A DNA stretch of 64,000 nucleotides from a virus. Its lineage: Duplodnaviria; Heunggongvirae; Uroviricota; Caudoviricetes. Made by a program: the position numbers and the translations under genes. Shown piece after piece: positions 17,310-34,691 of this stretch. The DNA is taken from positions 10,223-74,222 of IMG/VR virus record IMGVR_UViG_3300032007_004072, one strand, 5' to 3'. Numbering within the stretch: position 1 is the first letter of the stretch; every line of letters begins with the position of its first letter. The notes beneath the pieces were generated by a model that saw only the letters and a list, made by a program, of their open reading frames with translations, did no database searches and had not been told where the DNA came from.

Positions 17310-17313
17310 GACT

Positions 17314-17386: not shown

Positions 17387-18103
17387 GTGAGAAATTTGCC
17401 TGATGAAAAAGTAATAGACTTAGATAGATTATCAAGATTTCACGATAATCTAAAATCAAATGGCTTACCATTAAATAATTGGCAAGCCAATAAAAAATAT
17501 AAAGTAGGATATACTGTAATACAAGATGGAAAATTTTATAGATGTAAAACAGAGCATACTTCAACTACAACTTTTGATTCTACAAAATTTGACTTAGTTG
17601 GTGGTAGCGGAGGTACAACTATTTCAGATTGGGCTACAGGAACTACATATTCTGTAGGTGATTTAGTAATACATGATAATAATATATATCAATGTAATAC
17701 TAATCATACTTCAACTACATTTACAGCTGATGCAAGTAAATGGACTTTAATCGGCAATAAAGGTATAGATTTTTATACTATTGGAGAAAGTTATGATGTT
17801 GGAGATATAGTAATATATAGTGGAAATATATATCAATGTACAACTGCACATACAGCAACTTCTACTTTTGATACAACAAAATGGGCAGAAGTAAGTGCTA
17901 GTGAAAATGGAATAAGTGAGTGGCAATCTTCTACTGATTATGCAGTTGATGACATAGTAATGTATCAAGATTGCATTTATAGATGTGATACAGCACACAC
18001 CAGTACTAGTACTTTTGACGATACAAAATTTACACAATTAACATATGATATAGAAGATAATTCTGACTTAATAGAAAGTATATTTGGGGAGGCAGTATTG
18101 TGA
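17387..18103 (+). CDS. fiber-family protein (238 aa) with 5 'HTS' CBM-like repeats; GTG start
   Basis: Repeats YRCKTEHTSTTTFDSTKF, YQCNTNHTSTTFTADASKW, YQCTTAHTATSTFDTTKW, YRCDTAHTSTSTFDDTKF. Confidence 0.7.
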   Translation: MRNLPDEKVIDLDRLSRFHDNLKSNGLPLNNWQANKKYKVGYTVIQDGKFYRCKTEHTSTTTFDSTKFDLVGGSGGTTISDWATGTTYSVGDLVIHDNNIYQCNTNHTSTTFTADASKWTLIGNKGIDFYTIGESYDVGDIVIYSGNIYQCTTAHTATSTFDTTKWAEVSASENGISEWQSSTDYAVDDIVMYQDCIYRCDTAHTSTSTFDDTKFTQLTYDIEDNSDLIESIFGEAVL

Positions 18104-19809
18104 GCAAGTTAGTAACAAATGAAAATTTACAAGCTTATCATGCTGAACTTGCAGAGCATATAAAACTCCTGCAAAGAGGTACAGCATATATCTTAAATGA
18201 TATTGTAAATTATGATGGAAATACTCTAAAATGTACTACAGCTGGAACAACTGCTACTACAAAACCTGATGTATCAGCATTAGATGTAGGAGATACATTA
18301 CCTGATGGAACAGCTGTTTGGACAAGAGTAGACTTAGACAAAAGAGGAATTGATTATTGGGCATCTAGTACTGATTATGCATTAAATGACCAAGTAGTAT
18401 ATAATGATAAAATCTATAAATGCAGTACTGCACATACATCAACAAGTACATTTGATGATACGAAATGGGCAGAAATCAGTGCTGGTGGTGGTGGAGGATT
18501 AGATTATTGGTCATCTTCAACAACTTATGCATTAGATGATGTTGTTATATATAATGATAAGATTTATAGATGTACTACGGCACATACAAGCTCATCTACA
18601 TTTGATGATACAAAATTTACTGAAATTTCAGCAAGCATCAGTGGTGGAGGTAGTATAGATGAATGGACAAGTGGAACAAGCTATTCGTCTGGAGATTTAG
18701 TAATAAATAATAATGTACTGTATAAAGCTAATACTACAACATCAACAACTTGGGTAGATAGTGAATGGGATGTAATAGGAACTACATTTAATTCTACAAG
18801 TACGTATGCACAAAAAATAATAACAAATGTAGTAGCTCCATATGAAATGCTATTACAAGTTGGGGATAGTAATTATTGTAAACCTCCAATAGATGTATTA
18901 AAGAAAACTGGCGGTAGTGATAATGTAACATTAACATTAGAAAACTATAATAATGCGTCAGCATATACTGGTACAAGTGATTTTCTAAAAATAGAAAACA
19001 GTAAAGCTAAACTATATAATTATAAAGAATATCCAATAACTACACAAACATTGTCTACTATTGATATTGGTGTAAGTGATGAAATAGATTTTGATGATTT
19101 TTATGTTGAAGGTGGAGGAAAAAGGTATCTAATAGATTCTAATGATTTAGTAGTAATTCATTTCAATGAATCAGTCATAAACGAAACAGCTTATGCAGAC
19201 CCAGTAGTTAATTCATCTTATAATATAGAGTATGTTGCAGGAAAATTTGATAAAGGTTTATATATAAATGATGATACTAATGCTAATGCAATGATGATTA
19301 GTGATAACAGTTTAATATCTGCTATAAATAGCGCATTGAATAGTGATTTTACTATTGAATTTTGGTTTAAGATTGTTGATAGTAGTTTTAGTGGTACATC
19401 TTTGTCTATATTTTGTGGAAATGGCTATGGTCAATTAAGTTTTTATATTTATAATGGAACAGAATTAAGGGTAGGTAGACATGAAGTATCAAATGATTAC
19501 ATATATAGTGTTACAATGATAGATTATATGGATGAAAATTGGCATCATTTTGCATTTACTAGGAAAAATGGTAATGGAAGTTTATTTATTGACGGTACAT
19601 TAGTTTCTCAAAGATCATGTAGTTTTTATTCAACAAATACAGCATTTAATGTGTTTTGTATGATTCAATATAATACAAGTACTAAATTATGGAATGTTGA
19701 TGAGTTTAGATTTTCTAATGTTTGTAGATATGACACAAATTTTAATGTTCCAGAATATCCATACAGTAACATAATTAATTGTAATATTACCTCATTGGAG
19801 GTGAATTAA
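18100..19809 (+). CDS. tail fiber protein (569 aa): N-terminal 'HTS' repeats + C-terminal LamG domain
   Basis: YKCSTAHTSTSTFDDTKW repeats; LamG signature LVVIHFNES...GKFDKGLYI...FTIEFWFKI. Confidence 0.75.
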   Translation: MSKLVTNENLQAYHAELAEHIKLLQRGTAYILNDIVNYDGNTLKCTTAGTTATTKPDVSALDVGDTLPDGTAVWTRVDLDKRGIDYWASSTDYALNDQVVYNDKIYKCSTAHTSTSTFDDTKWAEISAGGGGGLDYWSSSTTYALDDVVIYNDKIYRCTTAHTSSSTFDDTKFTEISASISGGGSIDEWTSGTSYSSGDLVINNNVLYKANTTTSTTWVDSEWDVIGTTFNSTSTYAQKIITNVVAPYEMLLQVGDSNYCKPPIDVLKKTGGSDNVTLTLENYNNASAYTGTSDFLKIENSKAKLYNYKEYPITTQTLSTIDIGVSDEIDFDDFYVEGGGKRYLIDSNDLVVIHFNESVINETAYADPVVNSSYNIEYVAGKFDKGLYINDDTNANAMMISDNSLISAINSALNSDFTIEFWFKIVDSSFSGTSLSIFCGNGYGQLSFYIYNGTELRVGRHEVSNDYIYSVTMIDYMDENWHHFAFTRKNGNGSLFIDGTLVSQRSCSFYSTNTAFNVFCMIQYNTSTKLWNVDEFRFSNVCRYDTNFNVPEYPYSNIINCNITSLEVN

Positions 19810-19812
19810 CAT

Positions 19813-21798
19813 ATGTCAGAATTTTTGATTAGACTTAGAGCTACATCAAATGGAATAGAAGATTTGGCAGGAAATACGATAACAAATAATGGTTCAGTTA
19901 GTGTAGTTGACGATAATGATTTTCAGGTTAGCGGAAAAGCTATTAGATTTTCAGGAAGCAATTATTTAGTGGTAGACTTATCTCAATCATATAATTTTTC
20001 TTCATCTGATGATTATACTATATCTGTATTTGTTAAAGCATTGCAACCAACTCAATATCCAGTAGCGTTAGTGAAATATGCGGCGTATGGGCCTGGATTA
20101 GCTGTTGGTAGAGCTGGTTCATGGATTCCATACGCATCATTTAAGAATGACGGTTACGCTACTCAATGTATATCTTCATCTGCTTATAGTGTAAGCGTTG
20201 TTCATCACATTGCTTTAGTTAAACAAGGAACAACCGCAACAATATATATTGATGGAGTTGCAACAGGAACACAAACATGGTTGGATAATGTTGATTTTGG
20301 TAATAAGTTATGCATTGGCTGGGACGGTATGCAAAGTGTAACTTATTTTAACGGTGAGTTAGATGACATTGTTATTGTAGATGGAGCGTTGTGGACATCT
20401 AATTTTACTCCACCATGGAATGGTGTTACACTTCCATCTAAATTTGCTTTTCTTTCAAATAATTCATTATATACAGGAGCATCATTAACACAATTATCTA
20501 ATTCGTGGAATACACTAACAAATGCACAGAAAGAAGCATTAGTACCATCATTTAGTGATGATATGCCAGCAATATCAAATTTAGCAACTATATCACCATT
20601 TAGAGTATTAACAGATGATACTTCTTCGACAAATGTAAAAGTAACAGGACAGCCAAAACCACAGACAATAGAACCAACATCACTAATAAATACAGGAGCA
20701 GTATCTACAGTACAATCAATAAATATAACTAATACAATAACAGATACCACAGTTAAATTTGCGATAACTACAGATTTAACTACTTACAAGGTATATGATG
20801 CTATACAAGGGGAGTGGGCAACATCTACTGATATAGAAGAAGATGGTATGAGTATCGCACAAATAAATGCATTAACACCAGAGATGTTAGCATTATTAAA
20901 TATATCAAATGGTATAGCATTTAAGCAATGTTTTATAGGAACAAGTGAAAATGCATCAGCAGAATTATCAGAAATATCAGCAGTAGTAGATATTGATGGT
21001 AGTTGGAGTCAGTCTGTACATGGAACTGACTATAATGTGACTTATCCAAATAAAACTACAATGTCAGTAAGATTACTAACAAATGGTGATTATATTATAA
21101 ATTATCCTGTAACTAATGAAGCTAATAATGGAAATGGTAGTGAGGTAATTGATGCAAATACCCTTGTATTGATGCACTTTGATAATAATATAGAAGATGT
21201 TGGTAAAGCACGAGTAGTTTGGCAAGCAGTTGGTATAGATCCAACATATAGTAGTATATATAAGAAATTTGGTAGTGCTATGCAAGCTAATAATACAAAT
21301 AATGCTAAGAAGTATATAAAAGCTGATAGTTCTTTCTCTATAAATACTCATGCATTTACAGTAGATTTTTGGTTAGTTTATACTGATAATAATTATGGGT
21401 ATCAAGGATTGTTTGGTGTAGTTAATGAATCTATAAGACCGCATATGCTTTGTTATGTAAGGCATGATAGTTTTAATAGTAAATTTAGATATATTATTAT
21501 TTCTGTGTCTGGTACATCTTTAATTGATATACAAAGTTCCTCAGCTATACTAAATGGTACACACCATATAGCTATAGTTGGTAGTGGTGGTGTAATATCT
21601 ATATATATTGATGGTGTATTGTCATCAAGTCAAAGTGGTATATCAGAACAAACGCTTTCATTTAGTGATTTTATTATTGGAATGGATTCAAGTCAATATA
21701 ATAACTATACGAATTCTTATATTGATGAGTTTAGAATATCTTCGATAGCTAGGTGGACTAGCAACTTTGATCCGCCAGTAAGTCCATATGGAGTCTAG
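19813..21798 (+). CDS. tail fiber / receptor-binding protein (661 aa) with two LamG domains
   Basis: N-terminal LamG (LIRLRATSNG...GKAIRFSG...YTISVFVKA) and C-terminal LamG (LVLMHFDNN...AFTVDFWLVY...IDEFRIS). Confidence 0.75.
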   Translation: MSEFLIRLRATSNGIEDLAGNTITNNGSVSVVDDNDFQVSGKAIRFSGSNYLVVDLSQSYNFSSSDDYTISVFVKALQPTQYPVALVKYAAYGPGLAVGRAGSWIPYASFKNDGYATQCISSSAYSVSVVHHIALVKQGTTATIYIDGVATGTQTWLDNVDFGNKLCIGWDGMQSVTYFNGELDDIVIVDGALWTSNFTPPWNGVTLPSKFAFLSNNSLYTGASLTQLSNSWNTLTNAQKEALVPSFSDDMPAISNLATISPFRVLTDDTSSTNVKVTGQPKPQTIEPTSLINTGAVSTVQSINITNTITDTTVKFAITTDLTTYKVYDAIQGEWATSTDIEEDGMSIAQINALTPEMLALLNISNGIAFKQCFIGTSENASAELSEISAVVDIDGSWSQSVHGTDYNVTYPNKTTMSVRLLTNGDYIINYPVTNEANNGNGSEVIDANTLVLMHFDNNIEDVGKARVVWQAVGIDPTYSSIYKKFGSAMQANNTNNAKKYIKADSSFSINTHAFTVDFWLVYTDNNYGYQGLFGVVNESIRPHMLCYVRHDSFNSKFRYIIISVSGTSLIDIQSSSAILNGTHHIAIVGSGGVISIYIDGVLSSSQSGISEQTLSFSDFIIGMDSSQYNNYTNSYIDEFRISSIARWTSNFDPPVSPYGV

Positions 21799-21897
21799 TT
21801 TTGGTATTTAATAAAAGTTGTATGGAGGAAATATAATGCAATGGAAATTCAATTCTTCTTAATGTTACTACAAGCAGTAGTATGGAGGTGATATAAC

Positions 21898-24198
21898 TTG
21901 AAATTTTCAGCTTTAGCAATATCTCTAGCATCACTAGCAACATTTAATACTGCTTTTGCGCTACCTACTGGTGAAAATATTAGGTCAGGTAGCGCAGATA
22001 TAGCTAGAGATGGTAACTCAATGGTAATAACACAAAATACTAATAGAGTAGCTATTGACTGGAATACTTTTAATGTAGATAGAAATGAATTAGTAAGATT
22101 TAATCAGAATGGTGGAATAGCCTTAAATAGAGTGGTAGGTAATGACCTATCCTCTATTTTTGGCAGAATACAATCTGATGGTACGGTTATACTAATTAAT
22201 CCTAATGGTATTCTTTTTGGCGAAGGTTGCCAAATAGATACTGGAGCATTTATAGCATCTACAAAAAATATTTCAGATGATATAATGACTAATTTTAGTA
22301 TGTCAAATGACCCATTAATTTCTTTTGAGCCTGATGAACACGGTAATATAGTAAATATGAATGGTATAATAAAGGCTGATAAAGTAGAATTAGGTGAAGA
22401 TGGTGAGATTTATCTAAAATCTAGTAATGATGCGTTAATAACAGGCGATACAAAAGTTAATAATTTTATAGTTGTAGGAGAAAATATAAATTTAGAAAAT
22501 GGTACTTTTATATCTACTGGAGATACTAATTTAATATCTAAGGTAGATACTAATATAAATTCTCCTATAACTTCTACAGGAAATCTTATTTTTGGTGCGG
22601 ATTATGATAAAGACTATAAAGGCATGGTTAGTGTAGGTGCTAATATATCTACTGATAAAGATTTAACATTCTATGCACCAACTACTGGTACTTATTTTAA
22701 TTATCCTAGTGGAAAAGGTAATATAAGCGCAAAAGATATTAACTTTTATGGAAATGTAGCCGTAGACAATAGCACTTTAGATATAGATACAGAAAATATA
22801 ACCTTCTATTCAAATATAGACTCAGCAAACTCTTACAATGTATATGAAAATGGTAGCACTTATGGGGCCGATGTAAAAGATGAGCCTGCAATGAAAAGTC
22901 TAGCTAAGTTTTATTATGAAAACTATCTAAAAAATATAGTATATAAAGACTTTGAAAATCTAACTAGTGAAGAATATGCTATTATTAGAGATAGATGCTT
23001 AGATGAATATAAAGGCTATCATAATAGACCATTACCAACTGATGAACAAGAAGCAGTAAAGGCATATTTTAATGAGAATGTAAAGCTAAGTGGTTTAACT
23101 GAAGCTACGGATTTTGATAATTTAACTGATGATCAATATACACAATTAGCTAAACATATACTAACAACATTTGCATATAATAATACTGATAATAGAGAGT
23201 CTATACTAAATATATGGGCAAATGCAGTTAATTCCGCAAAGGAAGGAACTGAAGGTGGAGATGCAGTTGGTGATAAATATTTAGCTACAATAACTGATTC
23301 GCTAGAAAATTGGAGAGTAACTTCCATGCTAAAAGGTAAAAGTTATGAATATTTCCTTGGTGGAAGAACTGATATAGTAGGCAAGAACATTAAAGACAAT
23401 AGAGTATTTAAGTGGTATACAGGAATATCTAAAGATGTAGTATTCTTTACATCAACAGGAGAAGGAGAAGGTATAACACATACATATTCAGCTTGGTCTA
23501 AAGATCCAAATGGAATATTTGGTTATGTGTTTAATGAACCTAATAATAATTCTAATTATGACCAACCATATGTTGCAATAGGTTGGCACGATAATAGTGG
23601 CAACAGTTGGGCAGATGTAGATGATGCTAAAAATACAGTAAGAGGACTTATACAAGAAATAAATAATCCTCGCTCAACAATAAACATAACATATACAGGT
23701 TCGCATGAAGAAAAAGGAAAAGTAGGAGATTCAGTACCTATAACAATAAACTTTAATAAAGTAGAACCTATACCTAAACCTGAACCTAAAGTGTATGAGG
23801 AGTATAGACCAATAGTAGAGCCTATAAGAAAGCCAGTAGACTTAGATTTTGAGATATTAATAATAAAAGAAGTAGATGGTAAGTATTATATGTATGGGGA
23901 ATACTACTTAACAAAGAATGATAGAGAAGTAGATATAGAACTATTAGATAAAAATAGACCACTACCAAAGGTAATAACTGATAGTAGGCTAAGTAAGACT
24001 TCAGTAAACCTTTTAGGTGGAGAGTTTTATATAGATTATGATGGAGTAACATATTCAATAACACCAGCCAATAAAGAAGCAGAAAGAATAGTAGAAGATG
24101 GTGATGCTACTAACAATGAGGATGTTGTAGAAAAAGCATTAGAAACCATCTATGTAGACAACTTAAGATTAATATGCGTACATTTTGGCAGGAGGTGA
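21898..24198 (+). CDS. secreted protein (766 aa): Sec signal peptide, N-terminal TPS / filamentous-haemagglutinin-type (haemagg_act-like) beta-helix domain, large C-terminal region of unknown function
   Basis: Signal peptide MKFSALAISLASLATFNTAFA. TPS hallmarks: NTNRVAIDWNTFNV, LNRVVGNDLSSIFGRIQSDGTVILINPNGILFGEGCQID. TTG start with GGAGGTGAT RBS. Confidence 0.75.
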   Translation: MKFSALAISLASLATFNTAFALPTGENIRSGSADIARDGNSMVITQNTNRVAIDWNTFNVDRNELVRFNQNGGIALNRVVGNDLSSIFGRIQSDGTVILINPNGILFGEGCQIDTGAFIASTKNISDDIMTNFSMSNDPLISFEPDEHGNIVNMNGIIKADKVELGEDGEIYLKSSNDALITGDTKVNNFIVVGENINLENGTFISTGDTNLISKVDTNINSPITSTGNLIFGADYDKDYKGMVSVGANISTDKDLTFYAPTTGTYFNYPSGKGNISAKDINFYGNVAVDNSTLDIDTENITFYSNIDSANSYNVYENGSTYGADVKDEPAMKSLAKFYYENYLKNIVYKDFENLTSEEYAIIRDRCLDEYKGYHNRPLPTDEQEAVKAYFNENVKLSGLTEATDFDNLTDDQYTQLAKHILTTFAYNNTDNRESILNIWANAVNSAKEGTEGGDAVGDKYLATITDSLENWRVTSMLKGKSYEYFLGGRTDIVGKNIKDNRVFKWYTGISKDVVFFTSTGEGEGITHTYSAWSKDPNGIFGYVFNEPNNNSNYDQPYVAIGWHDNSGNSWADVDDAKNTVRGLIQEINNPRSTINITYTGSHEEKGKVGDSVPITINFNKVEPIPKPEPKVYEEYRPIVEPIRKPVDLDFEILIIKEVDGKYYMYGEYYLTKNDREVDIELLDKNRPLPKVITDSRLSKTSVNLLGGEFYIDYDGVTYSITPANKEAERIVEDGDATNNEDVVEKALETIYVDNLRLICVHFGRR

Positions 24199-24523
24199 TA
24201 AAATGAGTTTAACTTTAATACTACAAGGACTGATGACCATAATAGTAGGATATGTAGGAATTAAATTAAAGAAAAGGGAAGAAGAAAAAGAAAAAGAACG
24301 AGAAGAATCAGAAGCTATTAAAAATGGTATAAGAGCAGTATTAAGAGATAGGATATTACAAGCCTATAATCATTTTAGTAGAATAGGAAAAATACAAATA
24401 GAAGAACTAGAAAATATAAGTAATATGTATATAGCATATCATAATTTAGGTGGAAATGGGGTAGTAACTTCTGTATATAATAAAGTATTACAAATTCCAC
24501 ACGAATTAAAGAAGGAGGATTAG
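24185..24523 (+). CDS. holin-like small membrane protein (112 aa): one N-terminal TM then a highly charged coiled C-terminal domain
   Basis: TM segment LTLILQGLMTIIVGYVGI then KKREEEKEKEREESEAIKNG...; start overlaps upstream stop; GGCAGGAGGTGA RBS. Confidence 0.45.
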   Translation: MAGGDKMSLTLILQGLMTIIVGYVGIKLKKREEEKEKEREESEAIKNGIRAVLRDRILQAYNHFSRIGKIQIEELENISNMYIAYHNLGGNGVVTSVYNKVLQIPHELKKED

Positions 24524-24536
24524 AGAGGTGAGTTAG

Positions 24537-24899
24537 TTGCAATTCATAGCAAATTTAGTAGCTTCAATAATACCGTATCTATTAAGGTTCATGGATAAAC
24601 ATAGTGATGAATACTTAGAAAAATTAAGTAATAAACTTATTAATTTTTTAGATAGTGAGTATAGAGCTACAGTAAAATTTTGTGTAATAAATAAAGAAGG
24701 AAAGCCTCTGCAAAATGTGGAGGCTGGATTTATTATAGAAGATATAGGAAAAGTATATAAAAAAGGTGAAGGAAGTATAATAACTATCACAGGGTTAAGA
24801 GAAGGAAAATATGAATTTGATATTTTTGGTCAGATAATTCATATAGAAATAGAAGATGCAAATACAATAATAGAAAGGATGGTAATTGTGGGTCAATAA
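24537..24899 (+). CDS. hypothetical protein (120 aa) with C-terminal carboxypeptidase-regulatory/transthyretin-like beta-sandwich domain
   Basis: VKFCVINKEGKPLQNVEAGFIIEDIGKVYKKGEGSIITITGLREGKYEFDIF; its stop codon directly abuts the IscB element's left-end hairpin. Confidence 0.5.
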   Translation: MQFIANLVASIIPYLLRFMDKHSDEYLEKLSNKLINFLDSEYRATVKFCVINKEGKPLQNVEAGFIIEDIGKVYKKGEGSIITITGLREGKYEFDIFGQIIHIEIEDANTIIERMVIVGQ

Positions 24900-25140
24900 C
24901 CCACCACCTATAGAGGTGGAAGCTTGGAACCAAGCACTAGTTGACTAGCCTAAGTCTTAATTGACTACGTTATTTTAGTTATTTCACCTATGAATATAGA
25001 TCCTAGTTTGTAGCTCTGAACAGGCTCTGTAAACAGTTCTGATGGGTAGGAACAGTCAACCTGGGGACGGCTTAACATTTAAGCAAGCTATTATAACATT
25101 GGCGAAGGGTCGTGTAACTCAGGAATAGGAGGTAAACTCA
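24900..25140 (+). ncRNA. candidate IscB omega-RNA (structured, GC-enriched ~240-nt non-coding region directly 5' of iscB on the same strand)
   Basis: Several stem-loops (CCACCT-ATAG-AGGTGG; GCTTGG-aa-CCAAGC; ACAG-gct-CTGT; others). GC content is visibly higher than the ~28% background. No ORF. The position upstream of iscB matches the published IscB omega-RNA arrangement. Confidence 0.5.
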
Positions 25141-26403
25141 TTGTTAGTTTATGTACTAAACAAAAATGGTAAACCACTTATGCCTTGTAACCCACAAAAA
25201 GCAAGAAAATTGCTTAAAAGTGGTAGAGCAGAAATATATAAGTATACACCATTTACAATTAAATTAAAATATGGTAGTGCTGGGTATAAACAACCAATAA
25301 CATTAGGTATAGATGCAGGTTCTGTACATATTGGAGCTTCAGCAACTACTGAAAAGAAAGAATTGTATGCGTCAGAGACTATTATGCGCTCTGGTGATGG
25401 TAAGCAAAGTATAGTAAATTTATTATCTACAAGAAAGGAGTTAAGACGTTCTCGTAGAAATAGAAAAACACGTTATAGATCTGCAAGATTTTTAAACAGG
25501 GAAAAACCTAAAGGTTGGCTTGCACCTTCTATAGAAAATAAAATTCATGTACACTTAAAATTAGTTGCTGATATACATAAAATATTACCTATAACTAAAA
25601 TTATAGTGGAAGTTGCTAGTTTTGATATTCAAAAGATTAAAAATCCTAATATAAGCGGAAAGGAATATCAAGAAGGTGATCAGTATGGTTTTGGTAATGT
25701 GAGAGAATATGTATTGTTTAGAGATGATCATAAATGCCAATGCTGTAAGGGAAAATCTAAAGATAAGGTGTTAAATGTCCACCATATTGAGTCTCGTAAA
25801 ACTGGGGGTAATGCTCCAAACAATTTAATTACATTATGTGAGTCTTGCCACAATAAATACCATAAAGGTTTAATAGATTTACCTAAAAATATAAAAAGAG
25901 GTATGTCATTTAAAGACGCTACTTTTATGGGAATAATGAGATGGGCTTTTTATAATAAGTTAAAAGAAATTTATGTTAATGTAAGTTTAACTTATGGTTA
26001 TATTACAAAAGTAAAGCGTATAGAAAATAATATAGAAAAGTCTCATACTACAGATGCTTACTGTATATCAAATAATCTTAAAGCAGAACGGCTTGATTAT
26101 TATTTTCTTAGAAAGCAAGTAAGAAGACATAATCGTAAACTACATAGAGAAGTGCTAACAAAAGGTGGTGTTCGTAAAAGAGCACAAGCAGGACATTTTG
26201 TAAGGGGGTTTTGTTTGCATGATACAGTAGAGTATAATGATAAGTTATGGTTTATTGGAGGATTAAGGCAAAGAGGGTCTTTTGTATTAAAAGATTTATT
26301 TGGAAATAAAGTTGAAAAAGTACCTTCAAAGATTAAATTTTTACAACATAATAATTCTTATTTAGAAAGTGAGGTGAAAGTGGCGTTCTCCTTTATCTTA
26401 TAG
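25141..26403 (+). CDS. iscB: IscB RNA-guided nuclease (420 aa): PLMP N-terminus, RuvC-I, Arg-rich bridge helix, RuvC-II, HNH, RuvC-III
   Basis: VYVLNKNGKPLMPCNPQKARKLLKSGRAEIYKYTPFTIKLKY; LGIDAGSVHIGASA; RRSRRNRKTRYRSARF; IIVEVASF; CQCCKG...VHHIESRKTGGNAPNNLITLCESCHNKYH; HTTDAYCISNN. TTG start 7 nt after AGGAGGT. Confidence 0.85.
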   Translation: MLVYVLNKNGKPLMPCNPQKARKLLKSGRAEIYKYTPFTIKLKYGSAGYKQPITLGIDAGSVHIGASATTEKKELYASETIMRSGDGKQSIVNLLSTRKELRRSRRNRKTRYRSARFLNREKPKGWLAPSIENKIHVHLKLVADIHKILPITKIIVEVASFDIQKIKNPNISGKEYQEGDQYGFGNVREYVLFRDDHKCQCCKGKSKDKVLNVHHIESRKTGGNAPNNLITLCESCHNKYHKGLIDLPKNIKRGMSFKDATFMGIMRWAFYNKLKEIYVNVSLTYGYITKVKRIENNIEKSHTTDAYCISNNLKAERLDYYFLRKQVRRHNRKLHREVLTKGGVRKRAQAGHFVRGFCLHDTVEYNDKLWFIGGLRQRGSFVLKDLFGNKVEKVPSKIKFLQHNNSYLESEVKVAFSFIL

Positions 26404-26428
26404 AGGATGGAGAACGCCACAAATTTAG

Positions 26429-27115
26429 ATGGCACAAATTAAAATACAAACAAAAGATTTAACAGGAGAACCAGTTAAAGAAGCTTCAGTAGTATTTAAT
26501 TTAGAAGGTAAAGGTTTAATAGAAAGAACAACTGATAATTTAGGAAATACTTCAATAAGTGGAATAGAAGTAGGAGTATTACCAGTAACTATAACTAAGA
26601 AAGATTTTACTACACAATCTTTTGTATTAAAAATAATAGATATAGATCAAATAATAAGTAAAGAAGTAGTAATGTTATCAACAGAAAATAAAGAAAAACC
26701 AAAAGAGATAGTAAAAGAAACTGTAAATACAGTAATAGCAGATACTACAAAAGCTATTGTAGATTCTTATGCATTTGTAGAGCCAAAAAATATAGATGAG
26801 GCAAAACAGTGGTATAAAGAATTAGAGAAAAATATAGATGCGCAAAAAGATGTAATAAACACAGCACTAAAAAATGGAGTACATGATGTAGTACAACAAC
26901 AAGCAAGTAACCTAACATATACACTAGGTCAACAGCTAACAGCATCTATACATTGGTATGTAAAGGAAAGAAGTAAACTAGACCCATTAGGTTCATTGGA
27001 AGATTTAGGTAAATGGGCTTCTATGACATCTATGGTCGCGGGACTATTCTTTCTAAGAAGTAGCTTGGTTGAGTATATAAATAAGTTGTTAGAATATATT
27101 AAAAATAAGGTGTGA
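26429..27115 (+). CDS. hypothetical protein (228 aa): N-terminal carboxypeptidase-regulatory-like beta-sandwich domain, coiled middle, C-terminal hydrophobic segment
   Basis: IKIQTKDLTGEPVKEASVVFNLEGKGLIERTTDNLGNTSISGIEVGVLPVTITKKDF; C-terminal MTSMVAGLFFL. Confidence 0.55.
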   Translation: MAQIKIQTKDLTGEPVKEASVVFNLEGKGLIERTTDNLGNTSISGIEVGVLPVTITKKDFTTQSFVLKIIDIDQIISKEVVMLSTENKEKPKEIVKETVNTVIADTTKAIVDSYAFVEPKNIDEAKQWYKELEKNIDAQKDVINTALKNGVHDVVQQQASNLTYTLGQQLTASIHWYVKERSKLDPLGSLEDLGKWASMTSMVAGLFFLRSSLVEYINKLLEYIKNKV

Positions 27116-28134
27116 TATTTTTGCATAAAAGTGTTATAGATATTACAGGACAAAAATTTGGAAGATTGACTGCACTTAGTTATCTTGGTGGTGGGTATTG
27201 GGATTGTGTATGTGATTGTGATCCAGAAAAGCATTTGAGAGTTAATGGTTATAGTTTAAGGAAAGGATTTTCTCAGTCATGTGGATGTTTGAGAAAAGAA
27301 AGACTACATGAAGCTTTATTTATAGATTTAACAGGGCAGACTTTTGGTGAGTGGTATGTTGAATCATATGCAGGATATGAGAAAAGGGCATCTTGGTGGA
27401 ATATAGTTTGTTCTTGTGGTACAAGAAAGAAATTGACTACACAGGCATTGAGAGATGGCATATCAAAATCGTGCGGCTGTAAGAAATCTCAGTATGTATC
27501 AGAGTCAGAAATAACTCATAATATGTCTAGGACAAGATTTTATAGAATTTGGCAAGACATGAAAAATAGATGTAATAATGAAAGTAATTGTGAATATCAT
27601 AATTATGGTGGAAGAGGAATAAAAGTATGTGAAGAATGGAATAATTCATTTATAGCATTTCGTGATGCTATGTATGATGAGTATCAAGAACATGTCGATG
27701 AATATGGAGAAAATGATACATCATTAGACCGTATAGATTATAATGGTAATTATTGTAAGGAAAACTGTCGTTGGGCAACATGTCATGAACAAATACTTAA
27801 TAGAAGAACTTCTTTACGTGTAGAATTTGATGGTAAGATTGACTTAGTATGGGATTTAGCTGAAAGATATGATAAGAGATATGATTTAGTGGCAAGAAGA
27901 CTTAGGGATGGTTGGAATATATATGAAGCATTAGAAATAGTACCTCGTAAGACAAAAAAGAGAAATGGTATAGAGATGTTTGAGCTTGATGGTGTCAAGA
28001 AACCTATATCTTATTGGTGTAAATTATATAACATTGGTAGGCATACGGTTAGACGCAGATTACATAATGGAATGTCTTTTAGGGAAGCATTAGAGACTCC
28101 TAAAGGAACCCGCATAAGTAGTGGAATATCTTAA
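27112..28134 (+). CDS. HNH_3-like homing-endonuclease-family protein (340 aa): N-terminal Zn-ribbon repeats, core R.Y..W..M..RC-x-YHNYGGRGI.VC..W ... LDRID..GNYC.ENCRWAT, C-terminal HTH-like repeats
   Basis: Motifs TRFYRIWQDMKNRCNN, YHNYGGRGIKVCEEW, SLDRIDYNGNYCKENCRWATCHEQILNRR. One of 5 paralogs in this window. Confidence 0.7.
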   Translation: MIFLHKSVIDITGQKFGRLTALSYLGGGYWDCVCDCDPEKHLRVNGYSLRKGFSQSCGCLRKERLHEALFIDLTGQTFGEWYVESYAGYEKRASWWNIVCSCGTRKKLTTQALRDGISKSCGCKKSQYVSESEITHNMSRTRFYRIWQDMKNRCNNESNCEYHNYGGRGIKVCEEWNNSFIAFRDAMYDEYQEHVDEYGENDTSLDRIDYNGNYCKENCRWATCHEQILNRRTSLRVEFDGKIDLVWDLAERYDKRYDLVARRLRDGWNIYEALEIVPRKTKKRNGIEMFELDGVKKPISYWCKLYNIGRHTVRRRLHNGMSFREALETPKGTRISSGIS

Positions 28135-28168
28135 TAAATTATTAGAAAAATTAGGGAAAGGAATTTAA

Positions 28169-28194
28169 GGGGAAAGTAAAATTTCCCCTTTTTT
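28169..28194 (+). terminator. intrinsic terminator GGGGAAA-gtaaaa-TTTCCCC + T6
   Basis: Perfect 7-bp GC-rich stem followed by TTTTTT; immediately upstream of a promoter. Confidence 0.7.
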
Positions 28195-28198
28195 GCTC

Positions 28199-28227
28199 TT
28201 GACAGAAGGACGAAAGTGTGTTATACT
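28199..28227 (+). promoter_or_regulatory. sigma-A-like promoter: TTGACA, 17 nt, TATACT (TGt extended -10)
   Basis: cTTGACAgaaggacgaaagtgtgtTATACT. Confidence 0.6.
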
Positions 28228-28262
28228 ATGTACAGAAATTAAAAGAAAAGAGTTGGGGAGAA

Positions 28263-28355
28263 ATGTCAGAAAATAGTGTTAAGTGGTTTTTGTACGGAGC
28301 ATTAACAGTATTAATTATAGAGATGCTATTTTATTTATTTGTACTAATTGTATAG
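28263..28355 (+). CDS. small hydrophobic peptide (30 aa, 1 TM); not in ORF track
   Basis: MSENSVKWFLYGALTVLIIEMLFYLFVLIV; GGGGAG RBS 6 nt upstream. Confidence 0.3.
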   Translation: MSENSVKWFLYGALTVLIIEMLFYLFVLIV

Positions 28356-28366
28356 GAGAAAGAGAA

Positions 28367-28534
28367 ATGAGAATATTATTCGCGTCAGTAATAGCAAGCA
28401 TGATTGTAGGATTTGTACAAGGAACAATATTACTTTTAGGTATAGATACAATATTCAGTACACATTATTTTTCTTTTGTAAATGCTTTTGTAGCAGGAAT
28501 AATGAGTATTGCGATAAGGAAGTTTAATTTATGA
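28367..28534 (+). CDS. small membrane protein (55 aa, 2 TM); track ORF 28283 trimmed to the ATG with the best RBS
   Basis: AGGAGAAAGAG then ATG; MRILFASVIASMIVGFVQGTILLLGIDTIFSTHYFSFVNAFVAGIMSIAI. Confidence 0.35.
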   Translation: MRILFASVIASMIVGFVQGTILLLGIDTIFSTHYFSFVNAFVAGIMSIAIRKFNL

Positions 28535-30267
28535 TAAACGCAAAATATGGAAAACCAAAAAAATTAAAAGGAATAGAACAAAGTTTATTTTTAACATTTA
28601 GATACAAACAAAATATAGTAGATGCAATAAGAAAAATAACTCCAAGATATTGGCATAATGAAGAAAAGATGTGGGAGATACCTTACGATGCTTTGTCAGA
28701 ACTTAAAGATATTCTCCCAAAAGAGGGAATAGATATTTATGGGAAGCCAATTGACAATAAAAAATATGGAGAAAAAATAGTAGATCACACAATAACTTTA
28801 CCTAAAGCATTAACTACTAAATTATATCCATATCAAAAAGAAACTTTTGATGAAGGAATGGCTTTTGATCGTTATATTTATAATCTCGACCAAGGACTTG
28901 GAAAAACTAATTGCACAATAGCTACAATACTAAAAAGAATAGAGCTAGGGCAGATAAACAAAGTACTTATACTACCAGCAATGAACCTGCTTAAGTATAC
29001 TTGGGAAAATGAAGTAAATAAGCATACAACAGGAGTTAAGTGTAAAATTTTAGGTAATAGACAGAATAGCAAAGGTATATGGCTTACTAAAGGTACAAAA
29101 GAAAAATTAGAAGATTTAAATAATCTTGAGAATGATGTTTCTATTTATGTTACTAACATTGAGTCAATTAGAGAGAAAACTATTACAGATAAGTTAGTTA
29201 AGTTAATGGATAAGGGTGTATTTAATTGTATTGTAGTAGATGAAAGTCATAAAATAGTTTCACCTTCTGCACAACAATCAAAGGCATTATTAAGATTAAC
29301 TAATCATGTTAAATATGTGTACTTACTTACTGGTACTATACTCATGAATAGACCAGATGACCTTTATATTCCACTAAAGATTACGGGAGCATTTACAGGC
29401 AATTTTAGTAATTTTAGATCTAGATATGATATACTAGGTGGGTTTGGTAATTACGAAGTCGTGGGGCATAAGCATTTAGATGAATTACAAGCAAAGCTTA
29501 TATCAGTGTCTAAAAGGCTTAGAAAAGCTGATGTACTAAAACAATTGCCCCCTAAAATTTATGTGGAAGAGTTTTTGGATATGTCAGTAAAGCAAAAGAA
29601 AATATATAAAGATGTTTTAAATGCTATTGTGGCAGATATTGATAATATTAAATTAAGTATAAATCCACTTAGTCAAATGATAAGACTTAGACAAGCAACA
29701 GCTGATACTAGTATTCTTTCTAGTACTGTAAAAGAGTCTGTTAAGTTTGATAGAGCATTAGAGTTAATACAAGAAATTATTGAACGAAACGAATCTGTCA
29801 TTGTATTTTCTTGTTGGGAAACAGTAGTATCAAATTTCAGAAAATTTCTAAGTGACAATTATTTGATTTCAGCTGTAATAACTGGTAAAATAAAGGATAG
29901 GGAAGGGCAAATTAAATACTTTAATGAAAAGGATGACTGTCATATTATAGTTGGTACGGTTGGAGCAATGGGCGTTGGGCTGACCTTAAACAAAGCATCT
30001 AATGTAATATTTTTAGATGAATCATGGAGTGCTAGTGAAAAACTTCAGTGTGAAGATCGATGTCATAGAATAGGTCAGACAGAAACTGTAACTGTAATCA
30101 CACTTGTCTGCAAACATACTATAGATGAAAATATTCACTCAATAGTAAAAAGGAAGGGTGCTCTTGGAGATGCGTTAGTGGATCATAAGTATGATCTTAA
30201 AGATGAAAAAGTATTAAATTTCCTATTAACAGGGGAAGGAGAACTAGATGAAATCAAGAGTGATTAA
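28531..30267 (+). CDS. SNF2-family helicase / DNA-dependent ATPase (578 aa)
   Basis: Motif I LDQGLGKT, DExH box IVVDESHKI, motif III LLTGTILMNRPDDLY, C-terminal helicase domain VIFLDESWSASEKLQCEDRCHRIGQT. Confidence 0.85.
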   Translation: MINAKYGKPKKLKGIEQSLFLTFRYKQNIVDAIRKITPRYWHNEEKMWEIPYDALSELKDILPKEGIDIYGKPIDNKKYGEKIVDHTITLPKALTTKLYPYQKETFDEGMAFDRYIYNLDQGLGKTNCTIATILKRIELGQINKVLILPAMNLLKYTWENEVNKHTTGVKCKILGNRQNSKGIWLTKGTKEKLEDLNNLENDVSIYVTNIESIREKTITDKLVKLMDKGVFNCIVVDESHKIVSPSAQQSKALLRLTNHVKYVYLLTGTILMNRPDDLYIPLKITGAFTGNFSNFRSRYDILGGFGNYEVVGHKHLDELQAKLISVSKRLRKADVLKQLPPKIYVEEFLDMSVKQKKIYKDVLNAIVADIDNIKLSINPLSQMIRLRQATADTSILSSTVKESVKFDRALELIQEIIERNESVIVFSCWETVVSNFRKFLSDNYLISAVITGKIKDREGQIKYFNEKDDCHIIVGTVGAMGVGLTLNKASNVIFLDESWSASEKLQCEDRCHRIGQTETVTVITLVCKHTIDENIHSIVKRKGALGDALVDHKYDLKDEKVLNFLLTGEGELDEIKSD

Positions 30268-30814
30268 CAGTAAACATATGCTAGAGCATAAAAATGGCTA
30301 TACTGGCTATACTAGTCACTTAAAGCCCAGCCTTTTCTATGGAAATCCGCAAGAAGAAAATGTAATTTGGCTACAAGATTCTCATACTAATAAAATGGCA
30401 AAATTCATATTAGATGAAGTTATAGGCGAAGAAAAAGGAATGATATGGATATATAAACCTATACAAAAGTTTATAGATAAATTTCCACATCTTGAAGGTA
30501 AAACTATAAAGATACATTTTGACATGTGGCAGACACATCCTTTTGCTATTAAAAAACGAGCAGGATTAGTAAAGAAAAAAGGATGGAAGAAAAAAGAATA
30601 TGAAGAAATAGCAAAAGAAAAAGTAAAAATGTTTAAAGAATACTTTAATATACTAGGTTATCCTATGGAAGAAACCAGTCAAGTATTTACTATAACATTT
30701 CCAGATAATACAAAACATACATTTGAAAGAGCAGTAATAAAGAAGTCTGAAATTTCAATCCCAGAATTTGTAGAATTTCATTTGTACTTGGAAAAATTTG
30801 GAATTTATCCTTGA
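30248..30814 (+). CDS. hypothetical protein (188 aa)
   Basis: ORF with GGGGAAGGAG RBS, overlapping the helicase stop. Confidence 0.55.
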   Translation: MKSRVINSKHMLEHKNGYTGYTSHLKPSLFYGNPQEENVIWLQDSHTNKMAKFILDEVIGEEKGMIWIYKPIQKFIDKFPHLEGKTIKIHFDMWQTHPFAIKKRAGLVKKKGWKKKEYEEIAKEKVKMFKEYFNILGYPMEETSQVFTITFPDNTKHTFERAVIKKSEISIPEFVEFHLYLEKFGIYP

Positions 30815-30839
30815 CAAGCACTTAAAAATGTGCTATACT
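30811..30839 (+). promoter_or_regulatory. sigma-A-like promoter: TTGACA, 17 nt, TATACT
   Basis: cTTGACAagcacttaaaaatgtgcTATACT at the 3' end of the 30248 gene. Confidence 0.5.
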
Positions 30840-30907
30840 ATGTTTATCAAATCAAAGGAGGGAAGTCAGCAAAGCAAGCCAAAAGGACTTGCTCGACTGG
30901 CGGGCGA

Positions 30908-31426
30908 ATGACTCAGAAAAAGAAAATTGTAGGAAGTTTAATCTTAGCAGGAATGCTAATTGGAAGTAATGTATTGTGGTATAACCACACAAAAGAATTA
31001 GAAGTAAAATTAGAATCAAGAAGTCAAGCAATAGAAGTATTAGATACTTCTGTTAAAAAACAAGCTGAATATGTAAATGAATTAAAAGTTGACCTTCAAT
31101 CTAAGAATGAGGAAATTTCAGAGTTAAAAGGTCAGGTACAAAAGGCACAACAATTAAGCTATAGGACAATGCAAGTAAAGGTGAGCGCATACGCTCTTAA
31201 TGATGGACTAACTCCTAATAGTGTTATGGCTAATGGTGAAGTTCCTTATGTGGGGTGTGCAGCTATGAATGGTTTACCTTTAGGGACAAGAGTTCGGTAT
31301 AATGGTCAGATTTATGTTATAAAAGACAGAGTTGCTACAGATGGAGTATTAGATATTTTTATGAATTCTGTTGCTGAATGTAATGAATTTGGTGTACGAT
31401 ATGCTACAATAGAGATTTTAGATTGA
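30908..31426 (+). CDS. membrane-anchored 3D-domain protein (YuiC/MltA-like; possible muralytic enzyme), ~172 aa; start trimmed to ATG 30908
   Basis: N-terminal TM IVGSLILAGMLIGSNVLWY, coiled coil, then 3D domain VSAYALNDGLTPNSVMANGE...VIKDRVATDGVLDIFMNSVAECNEFG with conserved Asp residues. Confidence 0.6.
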   Translation: MTQKKKIVGSLILAGMLIGSNVLWYNHTKELEVKLESRSQAIEVLDTSVKKQAEYVNELKVDLQSKNEEISELKGQVQKAQQLSYRTMQVKVSAYALNDGLTPNSVMANGEVPYVGCAAMNGLPLGTRVRYNGQIYVIKDRVATDGVLDIFMNSVAECNEFGVRYATIEILD

Positions 31427-32465: not shown

Positions 32466-32948
32466 ATGTCAGATATGTTAACTTGGGCAGAAGAAGAACT
32501 TAAAAGATATAACTTTGATTTCTATGACGATAATATGAACAAAGCTGTATTAGAGGTTATAAAAACACTTGTAGATCAAGGACATACTAATATGTCAGCT
32601 TCTATTGTAATTACACTTGTAGATAGGCTTTGGAGTTGGAAACCTTTAACTCCATTAACTGGAGAAGAGGATGAGTGGTCAGATATATTAGATCCTGATG
32701 GCAATACACGGCAAAATAAAAGATATTCAGCAGTATTCAAAAATAAAGAAACTGGAGAATGTTATGATGTAGAAGGTAGAATTTTTGCTGAACCAGATGG
32801 GGTTAAATTTACCTGTAGAGAATCAAGAGTTCCAGTAGAATTTCCATACATGCCACCAGATAAGTATCCAGTGTATAAACTTAAATATAGTTCAGATGAA
32901 AAATCAGTAGAGGAACAGCTAAAAGATAATGAATATGAAATTGTATAG
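32466..32948 (+). CDS. hypothetical protein (160 aa)
   Basis: ORF tiled after the SPFH gene. Confidence 0.55.
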   Translation: MSDMLTWAEEELKRYNFDFYDDNMNKAVLEVIKTLVDQGHTNMSASIVITLVDRLWSWKPLTPLTGEEDEWSDILDPDGNTRQNKRYSAVFKNKETGECYDVEGRIFAEPDGVKFTCRESRVPVEFPYMPPDKYPVYKLKYSSDEKSVEEQLKDNEYEIV

Positions 32949-33404: not shown

Positions 33405-33517
33405 TAAAAGATGCCTATAAAGAAACATTAAAAATGCTTAAAGTCCTTGGACAAGTAGTTTTAGCAGAGTGTGGCAAGAAGCCTTCATCCTCTAAGCGAA
33501 GCGAAGGGTGGAGATGA
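33401..33517 (+). pseudogene. 5' fragment of a small membrane-protein gene interrupted by the TnpB element (MIKDAYKETLKMLKVLGQVVLAEC | then runs into the IS)
   Basis: ATG overlaps upstream stop. Deleting 33473..34836 in silico joins it in frame to 34837..35016 (see findings). Confidence 0.5.
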
Positions 33518-33581
33518 ATTGCCACAAACTACTTGCAATTATTTCTTACATATGTTACAATATAATTAGGAGGTGAGAATT

Positions 33582-34691
33582 TTGATAGTAGAAATTACTC
33601 GTGGCATGGAGTATAGGATTTATCCTACAAAAGAGCAAAGGATATTGATAAATAAAACTCTTGGTTGTAAGCGGTTTATTTACAATCATTTTCTACAGGT
33701 TCGTAGAGATGAATGGAAATTCAATCATAAAAGTGTTAATTATAGTGCTACAAATGCTATGCTTACAGACCTTAAAAAGTATGATGAGTATAGCTGGCTT
33801 AATGAAGTTGATAGTACGGCACTTCAAAATTCCCTTCGAGATTTACAAGTAGCATACGATAGATTCTTTAAAAAGATATCTAAGTATCCTAAGTTTAAGT
33901 CTAAACATGCATATTGTCAGAAATATAGAAGTCAGTGTGTAAGTAATAATATTAAATTAGTAGGTAATACAATTCAACTACCAAAGATTGGGAAAGTGAA
34001 AATCAAACTTTCTCGTGATTTGGTAGGAAAAATTGTAAATGCAACAGTTACTTGCACAGCATCTAATAAATATTATGTGTCTATTTGTGTAAAATATGAA
34101 ACAGAATTGCTTTCTAATAGTGGACATGAAATAGGTATTGATGTAGGAGTAAAAGATTTTTATGCAGATACTAATGGTAATGTGGTAAAGAATCCAAAAA
34201 TACTTGCTAAATTTGCAAAGAAATTAGCTCGTGCTCAAAGAAAATTAGTTCGTAAGAAAAAGGGTTCAGCACAATATGAAAAGCAAAGGATAAAAGTTGC
34301 TCGTATTCATGAAAAAATAAAGAATGTACGAGATGATTTTCAGCATAAATTAACTTATCACTTAACAGAAGACAATGCTTTTATAGCTATTGAGAAGTTA
34401 AACATCAAAGGCATGTTAAAGAATCACAAGTTAGCAAAAGCAATAAGTGATGTAGCATGGGGTAAGTTCTTTATTAAATTAGAATATAAAGCAAAAGAAC
34501 ATGGCGGTGTAGTAGTAAAAATACCTACATTCTACCCATCAAGTCAAACTTGTTATGAATGTGGATATAAAAATCCACTAGTAAAGAATTTACTTGTGCG
34601 AGATTGGGTATGTCCTGTATGTGGAGCGCATCATGATAGAGATAGAAATGCGGCAATAAATATTTTAGCAAAAGCAAAAGATATAGCATAA
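33582..34691 (+). CDS. tnpB: TnpB (IS605 OrfB) RNA-guided nuclease, ~369 aa; TTG start after AGGAGGTGAG (track lists GTG 33573 inside the RBS)
   Basis: N-terminal MEYRIYPTKEQRILINKTLGCKRFIYN (OrfB HTH); C-terminal Zn finger + RuvC-III: CYECGYKNPLVKNLLVRDWVCPVCGAHHDRDRNAAINIL. Confidence 0.85.
   Translation: MIVEITRGMEYRIYPTKEQRILINKTLGCKRFIYNHFLQVRRDEWKFNHKSVNYSATNAMLTDLKKYDEYSWLNEVDSTALQNSLRDLQVAYDRFFKKISKYPKFKSKHAYCQKYRSQCVSNNIKLVGNTIQLPKIGKVKIKLSRDLVGKIVNATVTCTASNKYYVSICVKYETELLSNSGHEIGIDVGVKDFYADTNGNVVKNPKILAKFAKKLARAQRKLVRKKKGSAQYEKQRIKVARIHEKIKNVRDDFQHKLTYHLTEDNAFIAIEKLNIKGMLKNHKLAKAISDVAWGKFFIKLEYKAKEHGGVVVKIPTFYPSSQTCYECGYKNPLVKNLLVRDWVCPVCGAHHDRDRNAAINILAKAKDIA

Follow-up and report, generated by a model that had tools for sequence, protein, structure and literature searches.

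A non-autonomous IscB-omega RNA element in a large tailed phage

Introduction

IscB-omega RNA systems, from which Cas9 is presumed to descend, are under development as very small genome editors. Here an IscB element is described from a stretch of phage DNA of 64,000 nt (positions 10,223 to 74,222 of the IMG/VR record IMGVR_UViG_3300032007_004072). The whole 64-kb stretch is called the window, and all coordinates are positions within it. The element contains an omega RNA gene and iscB only. An initial annotation, made by a model from the sequence alone, had proposed a phage-borne IscB nuclease at this location.

Among the closest known systems are the elements of the ISGst family in Geobacillus stearothermophilus, which encode GstIscB (Meers et al. 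2023, PMC10055086). These elements are also non-autonomous, combine IscB with an omega RNA of the HEARO type, and have the transposon right end (RE) on the RNA side. Their guide is derived from the flank, as it is here, and their target-adjacent motif (TAM) is TTCAT, which reads ATGAA in the orientation of iscB and is close to the ATGG/ATGR described below. One TnpA moves both the IscB elements and TnpB elements that have related ends and occur alongside them, and production of the omega RNA depends on transcription from outside the element. In the same work, approximately 1.5% of iscB genes were located near tnpA, and about 98% of iscB loci were non-autonomous. GstIscB elements reside in the chromosome of a bacterium whose TnpA has been identified, whereas the element in the window is carried by a phage, no TnpA was found for it in the searches described below, and its TAM appears to be ATGG.

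The HEARO RNA family was later shown to be the omega RNA of IscB (PMC13565253, PMC10055086). IscB, HEARO, and non-autonomous ISC elements are thus already well known, and HEARO has been annotated in phages before. HEARO/RAGATH-18 in Staphylococcus Silviavirus phages (PMC13346280) and the "HNH endonuclease" of Clostridium phage c-st are also cases of IscB/HEARO in large phages of Bacillota. Those records are descriptive annotations that give no boundaries, guide, TAM, or empty sites. IscB-like phage genes are common enough to form PHROG families, which are labeled "HNH endonuclease".

Two other systems resemble the homing scheme considered below. The free-standing Seg/Mob homing endonucleases of T4 cut, in a genome that shares the cell, the allele that lacks the nuclease gene, which is then copied in by repair, but they recognize DNA through protein. 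The IS605-TnpB plasmid gene drive (Mears et al. 2025, as cited in PMC13565253) is presented there with the same homing logic, but with TnpB on a plasmid. RNA-guided homing has been demonstrated in bacteria, in the cleavage of donor joints, and on plasmids, for TnpB. Homing of this type is placed in the category of "non-restorative homing" in a 2026 review (PMC13565253), where OMEGA homing into co-infecting phages is treated as theoretical and experimental support is cited only for TnpB on plasmids.

Results and Discussion

Identification of IscB

The protein encoded at 25141-26403 is an intact IscB, and the features of the locus are collected in Table 1. The Shine-Dalgarno (SD) sequence AGGAGG is located 8 nt upstream of the start codon. 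A full IscB architecture had been assigned to this open reading frame (ORF) in the initial annotation, and all of the motifs given there were found. Pfam searches returned RRXRR with an E value of 3.4e-65, covering positions 1-174 of 174, and HNH (PF01844) at 199-242 with an E value of 1e-8. The NCBIfam equivalog guided_IscB ("RNA-guided endonuclease IscB") matched with 382 bits against a cutoff of 175. When the protein was compared with PDB sequences using phmmer, the top matches were exclusively IscB chains (2.7e-47 to 5e-44), followed by IsrB and small Cas9s.

Table 1. Coordinates of the element, its parts, and the adjoining phage genes
Feature	Position	Strand	Details
Tail, baseplate, and fiber genes	5969-21798	+	PHROG/Pfam
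Upstream phage gene	24537-24899	+	120 aa, unknown function
Inferred 16-nt guide	24876-24891	+	AGGATGGTAATTGTGG; directly 5' of scaffold position 1
Non-autonomous IscB (ISC / IS200-IS605-type) element	24892-26428	+	1537 bp; termini GTCAATAACCC...CACAAATTTAG
Omega RNA scaffold	24892-25140	+	HEARO 24892-25117, then linker to iscB SD
RNA-side subterminal hairpin	24904-24919	.	CCACCT-ATAG-AGGTGG; transposon RE in TnpA orientation; 12 nt inside element end
iscB coding sequence	25141-26403	+	420 aa; TTG start; SD AGGAGG at 25127-25132
Far-end hairpin	26380-26420	.	Transposon left end (LE) in TnpA orientation; overlaps iscB stop codon 26401-26403
Last 8 nt of element	26421-26428	+	AAATTTAG
Inferred TAM	26429-26432	+	ATGG; flank DNA; start codon of ORF 26429-27115
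Downstream phage gene	26429-27115	+	228 aa, unknown function

The N-terminus had been described as very similar to those of characterized IscBs. The PLMP stretch VYVLNKNGKPLMPC at residues 3-16 indeed aligns to VYVISKSGKPLMPT of OgeuIscB, and both the NCBIfam and the RRXRR models match from residue 3. The split RuvC domain aligns to the OgeuIscB motifs at RuvC-I (GIDAGS, D58), RuvC-II (IIVEVASF, E157), and RuvC-III (HTTDAYC, H302 and D305). The Arg-rich bridge helix RRSRRNRKTRYRSARF follows RuvC-I at residues 102-117. The HNH domain is located between RuvC-II and RuvC-III, which distinguishes IscB from IsrB, and contains the zinc cysteines C199, C202, C233, and C236 together with H214/H215, N228, and H237/H241. 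The catalytic residues and the zinc cysteines are invariant or nearly so among 53 homologues.

An AlphaFold2 model of the protein was obtained with a predicted TM-score (pTM) of 0.72. The best PDB matches of the model in Foldseek are IscB-omega RNA-DNA complexes, namely 8CSZ (8csz_D, 1.6e-27), 9LIQ, 9NVU, 7XHT, and 7UTN, and the alignments to IscB cover the whole chain over about 500 columns. The domain order, the catalytic residues, and the RNA family are the same as those of the OgeuIscB-omega RNA complex (7XHT, 7UTN, 8CSZ), with E values of 1e-44 by sequence and 1e-22 to 1e-27 over the whole chain by Foldseek. The two proteins differ in length (420 residues here and 496 in OgeuIscB), share about 25% identity, and cannot be aligned by sequence in the C-terminal domain. 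The TAM of OgeuIscB is NWRRNA, which differs from the ATGG proposed here. The model contains a beta-rich domain at about 336-413 with per-residue confidence (pLDDT) values of about 64-86.

Assignment to Cas9 is not supported, because 420 residues leave no room for a REC lobe and Cas9 structures are matched in Foldseek only at 1e-6 to 1e-8, far behind IscB. No CRISPR array-like repeats were found within 20000-31000. The protein might instead be read as an ordinary HNH homing endonuclease that finds its target through protein contacts, with the upstream RNA as a mere cis-regulatory leader; PHROGs and GenBank phage records do call such genes "HNH endonuclease". The split RuvC, the bridge helix, and the PLMP domain are all present and complete, however, and it is the IscB equivalog model that matches and not the plain HNH families. 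The RNA next to the gene is HEARO, whose role as the guide RNA of IscB is established by biochemical and structural work, and this alternative is effectively refuted. The profile evidence thus bears out the original assignment over a plain HNH endonuclease lacking RuvC motifs. The label of a candidate programmable nuclease appears reasonable.

Identification of the Omega RNA

A full-length HEARO RNA (RF02033) was identified directly upstream of iscB using the Rfam covariance model. The match at 24892-25117 scores 125 bits against a gathering score of 83, covers positions 1-211 of the 211 of the model with an E value of 9e-27, and is the sole Rfam match in the 64 kb. It is on the same strand as iscB and ends 24 nt before the start codon. 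An nhmmer profile of the omega RNA matches at 24892-25129. The RNA differs from HEARO by about 25 additional nt at the 3' end, up to the SD sequence of iscB. The covariance-model search that the initial annotation had proposed therefore confirms the identity of the RNA; the scaffold begins at 24892, and not at 24900 as had been supposed. The region 24900-25140 is free of ORFs, as had been noted, and is enriched in G+C (40% at 24900-25100, compared with about 27-33% in the surroundings).

Folding of an alignment of 20 non-redundant phage copies with RNAalifold provided 45 base pairs, 32 of which have compensatory changes on both sides. The RNA is 88-92% identical between copies of the element. 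Full-length HEARO is found at the same position in 24 of the 24 IscB loci from IMG/VR and is absent from the empty-site locus. It is also present upstream of iscB in nearly all bacterial loci and loci from metagenome-assembled genomes (MAGs).

The upstream phage gene is co-oriented with the omega RNA, which fits the published need of IscB omega RNAs for transcription from outside the element. Weak AT-rich matches to a promoter consensus (for example at 24844-24871, 9 of 12) lie in flank DNA and do not exceed local shuffles; these candidates were rejected.

Truncated omega RNAs were observed at two other loci. In a Butyrivibrio MAG (L043), three tandem copies at 1703-1901, 2120-2323, and 2606-2800 are located directly upstream of iscB. 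These copies are truncated at the 5' end, span profile positions 53-254, and do not include the part with P1 and the end hairpin; another full copy is located downstream at 4504-4760. The omega RNA of L012 starts at profile position 52.

Boundaries of the Element at Site A

The element is missing from three related contigs (L025, L031, and L075), and comparison with these empty alleles, together with copies at other sites, fixed the boundaries at exactly 24892-26428. It is thus present or absent among closely related phages. The flanks of L025 are 96-97% identical to those of the window, and its junction reads ...GGTAATTGTAG/ATGGCAC, where the slash marks the position of the element. The flanks of L031 are 92% identical with the junction ...GGTAATTGCCG/ATGGCAC, and those of L075 are more diverged with the junction ...GGTGATCGTGG/ATGGCAC. 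The flanks abut exactly in comparisons of filled and empty alleles at sites A (the position in the window) and B (described below). No bases are duplicated at the target, no terminal inverted repeats are present, and the insertion is precise. The copy of L061, at another site, aligns to the window exactly from 24892 to the ATG. The end ...CACAAATTTAG followed by ATGG is the same at sites A, B, and C.

An earlier estimate of 24890-26426 (or 24889-26425) from the comparison with L025 alone was rejected. Three independent insertions show GTCAAT...AAATTTAG/ATGG, and L075 contradicts the estimate in that GTGG/ATGG is a natural empty allele. An exact-pattern scan of IMG/VR with the left flank was likewise set aside, since four of its five matches occurred by chance and have no flank homology.

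Both neighboring genes were altered by the insertion. The last codons and the stop codon of the upstream gene were replaced (...VIVGQ* here and ...VIVDGTN* in the empty alleles), and the new stop codon falls inside the omega RNA. The SD sequence of the downstream gene was parted from its ATG. The insertion at site A appears to be recent, because the filled allele recurs with 100% identity on several contigs and a relative with 96% identity lacks the element.

Guide and TAM

The guide would be the 16 nt directly upstream of the scaffold, the length being taken from characterized IscBs. The initial annotation had placed a guide of about 16-20 nt next to the scaffold near 24880-24900; the adjoining position holds and overlaps with that range, and the coordinates are refined to those of Table 1. 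The guide is derived from the flank. It is the 3' end of the upstream ORF, and in the empty allele it is also the SD sequence and spacer of the downstream gene. The sequence before GTCAAT varies between copies (GG, TC, AC). Compared with the empty alleles, the guide has 1 (L025), 2 (L031), and 3 (L075) mismatches. No other match with two or fewer mismatches was found within the window.

The TAM is probably ATGG, since this sequence follows the element in all four independent intact insertions (ATGGCA, ATGGTT, ATGGAG, and ATGGAA). At each of these four sites, a fixed motif occurs on only one side of the insertion. The ATGG/ATGR geometry agrees with the TTCAT motif of GstIscB and with the assignment of the HEARO side as RE (PMC10055086).

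End Hairpins and the Missing Transposase

The hairpins of the two ends of the element are CCACCTCTATAGGTGG and CCATCCTCTAT. The RNA-side hairpin folds as DNA with z = -3.4. It had been thought to start the element but is located inside the end. The outer stem of the far-end hairpin consists of the 12 bp GTGGCGTTCTCC/GGAGAACGCCAC at 26380-26391/26409-26420, with a DNA folding energy of -15.4 kcal/mol and z = -7.9, and its loop carries CTTATAGAGGATGG, which is related to the other end. The stem and the related loop had been recognized correctly; the element itself ends 8 nt further, at 26428.

The inner far-end hairpin of the window copy, ATCTT-ATAG-AGGAT at 26395-26408, is degenerate. It is perfect in the sister copy of L063 (CCATCCT-ATAG-AGGATGG), relative to which the window copy has three C>T changes. 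The far-end hairpins were found by alignment to the RNA-side hairpin of the same element; a crude finder of perfect stems gave inconsistent results. By this alignment, the inner far-end hairpin resembles its own RNA-side hairpin in 20 of 36 non-redundant loci (p <= 0.05 against shuffles), as is expected of recognition sites for TnpA. The likeness is visible in the window copy (CCTATAGAGGTGGA / CTTATAGAGGATGGA) but is not significant alone (p about 0.18). A role of the far-end hairpin as an intrinsic terminator was rejected; no T-run follows the hairpin and no terminator is predicted.

The element is non-autonomous, as had been proposed from the lack of tnpA. Its 1537 bp have no room for a transposase, and Y1_Tnp (PF01797) was not found in 37 mid-sized ORFs of the window searched with Pfam. 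A tblastn search with an approximate IS608 TnpA query and a scan for the Y1 motif were negative in the window and in all fetched loci, and this is a weak test. The element has been transposed to at least four sites without a tnpA of its own, and TnpA must therefore act in trans.

A second OMEGA element is located at about 33468-34840, 7 kb downstream of the first; the related contig L032 stops short of this region. Its tnpB coding sequence at 33573-34691 (+) contains HTH_OrfB_IS605, OrfB_IS605, and Cas12f1-like_TNB. The ends of this element match those of the IscB element in mirrored orientation. The 20-mer CCACCTCTATAGGTGGTGGG occurs in the window only at 34812(+), after tnpB, and at 24900(-), and CATCCTCTA occurs inside a GTGGC...GCCAC stem at 33486(+) and 26401(-). 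The mirrored common ends suggest that one TnpA may serve both elements.

Copies at Other Sites

Related phages carry intact copies of the same lineage (85-92% amino acid identity) at three more sites and a decayed copy in a fifth context. The element thus occurs at different sites (A-D, with the decayed copy at E), as do IS200/IS605 elements. The copy of L061/L062 at site B encodes an IscB with 90% amino acid identity in an element with 89% nucleotide identity, and is located directly before the start codon of a homologue of window ORF 16091-16663, so that the window is an empty allele for site B. The other two intact copies encode IscBs of 91% (L063) and 85% (L066) identity. All four intact insertions start with GTCAATAACCC and end with ...CACAAATTTAG, or CACAGTTAAG in L066. 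In the decayed copy (L064/L065, P0010), the IscB is 87% identical, the left terminus is changed to TTAATTAATAGCCC, other sequence stands in place of the last ~60 nt and the far-end hairpin that they contain, and the next gene overlaps the end of iscB. It looks like an immobilized IscB with an ORF that is still intact.

The ratio of nonsynonymous to synonymous substitution rates (dN/dS) of iscB is 0.11-0.17 between copies at different sites. These values point to purifying selection on iscB and to a protein whose function has been maintained since the divergence of the copies.

The window copy could alternatively be a stranded, decaying passenger that no longer moves or cuts. Such a fate would be consistent with the lack of a nearby tnpA, the degenerate inner far-end hairpin, the complete loss of the far-end hairpin in the sister copy of L064/L065, and the lack of a perfectly matching empty target in the sample. 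The ORF is nevertheless full-length with every catalytic residue kept, the dN/dS values are low, the omega RNA exceeds the Rfam gathering threshold over the whole model, and the insertion at site A appears to be recent. Decay of this kind is judged very improbable.

The closest relatives of the window IscB in IMG/VR (L001/L002, contigs of 207-236 kb, 75% amino acid identity) are located in a tRNA gene cluster of huge phages. Their right flank is not of the ATG type and reads GTTTTAAGTGG, followed by a tRNA.

Insertion Between SD Sequence and Start Codon

The position of the element relative to the downstream gene was compared with that of 21 non-redundant loci of the family with a convincing far-end hairpin, using random positions in the same loci as the control. 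ATGR occurs within 40 nt after the hairpin in 18 of the 21 loci (plus 2 masked by the alignment), compared with 44% in the control (p 1e-4). The ATG opens an ORF of at least 60 amino acids in 11 of 21 (control 12%, p 1e-5). An SD-like motif is found 4-18 nt before the scaffold start in 14 of 20 (control 19%, p 1e-6). Elements of the family thus tend to be found between the SD sequence and the start codon of a gene, in positions where the start codon would lie in the TAM and the SD sequence and spacer would serve as the guide. This placement, which the window element shares, is not mentioned for GstIscB (PMC10055086) and was not found stated in a full-text literature search, although it may be published elsewhere.

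Proposed Mechanism

The results are best explained by a non-autonomous IS200/IS605-type ISC element in a large tailed phage, which would work through TnpA in trans and RNA-guided homing. A probability of roughly 0.8 is assigned to this explanation. The steps follow those of characterized IscB/TnpA systems (Altae-Tran 2021; Meers 2023; OgeuIscB structures).

In the proposed scheme, a Y1 transposase TnpA, supplied by the host or from elsewhere in the phage, would recognize the end hairpins on single-stranded DNA, excise the element, and insert it beside a motif reading ATGG in the orientation of iscB. Read-through from the co-oriented upstream phage gene would provide an omega RNA whose 5' 16 nt are flank sequence. 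The IscB-omega RNA complex would cut DNA where this 16-mer directly precedes ATGG, that is, at an empty site, which could arise by excision or be found in a relative infecting the same cell. Repair by recombination with the filled copy would then restore or spread the element. The filled allele would be immune because its guide sequence is followed by the scaffold and not by ATGG. Homing would produce a filled/empty polymorphism of the kind seen here among phages that are about 96% identical.

Several points weigh against this explanation. The same presence/absence polymorphism arises equally from insertion or excision by TnpA and is no specific sign of homing. The guide length and the TAM are predictions, and the guide has at least one mismatch to each of the three empty alleles sampled. 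The C-terminal 110 residues (311-420) have no sequence match to any PDB chain, and the equivalence of this region to the TAM-interacting domain is suggested by a model of medium confidence. The degenerate inner far-end hairpin may make the window copy a poorer substrate for transposition. No tnpA was found in the window ORFs searched or in any fetched locus.

The differences between the guide and the empty alleles are concentrated near the junction in two of the three contigs. In L025, the sole difference within -48 to +40 of the junction is at -2, and in L031 the sole differences within -52 to +79 are at -3 and -2. The three guide mismatches of L075 are spread out, and this contig is more diverged overall. 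The differences at -2 and -3 are compatible both with selection for cleavage-resistant targets and with codon-level variation in the upstream ORF (GTG/GTA/GCC). As a hypothesis, escape within the seed is suggestive for L025 and L031 and is weakened by the spread mismatches of L075.

A broader, tentative extension of the homing scheme is that the IscB elements of this clade are natural RNA-guided gene drives among co-infecting phages. They would be aimed at translation start regions, with ATGG/ATGA as the TAM and the SD sequence and spacer as the guide; escape by mutation of the target site would then be costly for the phage. The empty alleles would be partial escape variants, and the IscB and TnpB elements would share one TnpA. 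This extension is possible but rather doubtful.

Phage Context and Neighborhood

Annotation with PHROG and Pfam places the window in the genome of a large tailed phage; all of its genes lie on the + strand. The genes after the tail-fiber genes include those for a SNF2 helicase, NrdD/NrdG, dUTPase, DnaB, a DNA polymerase, and RecU. The element is located between the structural (tail-fiber) module and the replication module. The initial annotation had placed it in a phage lysis/accessory region; the phage origin is supported, and the location is the junction of the fiber and replication genes, where evidence for lysis genes was not found. Metagenomic contigs as long as 199 kb encode proteins identical to the window IscB. 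The GenBank phage collection contains no close relative of the window phage.

Free-standing HNH homing-endonuclease genes (phrog_374/3377) are located at 27112-28134 (+) and 46068-47261, and the gene at 39102-39752 resembles them, as judged by eye alone. The gene at 27112-28134 is missing in both L025 and L031, so that the 228-residue downstream gene is flanked by two independent insertions of selfish nucleases.

In L070-L072, a different IscB (429 residues) with its own omega RNA (about 411-1990 in L070) is located one gene to the left of site A, between homologues of ORFs 24185-24523 and 24537-24899. The corresponding empty position in the window is at about 24527/24528. The flank begins with GTGAG and not ATGG, and the boundary can be placed only to within 5 nt. 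L025 contains a 2.2-kb insert at 4458-6663 within its homologue of the downstream gene, and the window is without this insert at 26886/26888. A 495-residue ORF of the insert has RuvC-like motifs by eye (GIDIGTS, FYVEDMDF, RDLYSAFLIMN). No Pfam match was found for this ORF and no Rfam match anywhere in the locus; the insert could be a divergent TnpB-like or IStron-like element. The neighborhood of site A looks like a hotspot for selfish nucleases.

Two further genes of the window were identified. The one at 32466-32948 (+) encodes Tad3, an inhibitor of type I Thoeris and thus an anti-defense gene (PF25185, 2.9e-29). The other, at 21898-24198 (+), encodes a 766-residue protein with an N-terminal two-partner-secretion (TPS)/hemagglutination-activity domain (PF05860, 7e-25), which is unusual within a phage tail-fiber region.

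These surroundings bear on the question of whether the phage retains IscB for its own benefit, as a weapon that destroys co-infecting relatives with an uninterrupted site and is itself copied little or not at all. The target would be the genome of close relatives, and phage homing nucleases are known to serve as weapons against competitors, according to a review (PMC13565253). The strong purifying selection on iscB, the presence of Tad3 and several free-standing HNH nucleases in the window, and the apparent hotspot for selfish nucleases would fit such a role. The molecular mechanism would be the same as that of RNA-guided homing and only the outcome would differ, but the element has clearly reached new sites whole and with its ends preserved, which is the behavior of a selfish element. 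A weapon of this kind is considered unlikely, and the homing element moved by TnpA in trans is preferred.

Significance

The compact 420-residue IscB with its short predicted TAM (ATGG) would be an addition to the catalogue of small editors. The locus is a good natural system for testing possible RNA-guided homing between phages, with exact boundaries and a predicted guide and TAM. It also offers phages of about 96% identity with and without the element, sister copies elsewhere, and, in the same phage, a TnpB element whose ends are the same. Its value is that of an unusually complete natural "experiment", together with the targeting of start codons and SD sequences. If this placement is general, it would account for the way in which these elements, in phage genomes densely packed with genes, locate targets that are safe, transcribed, and constrained against mutation.

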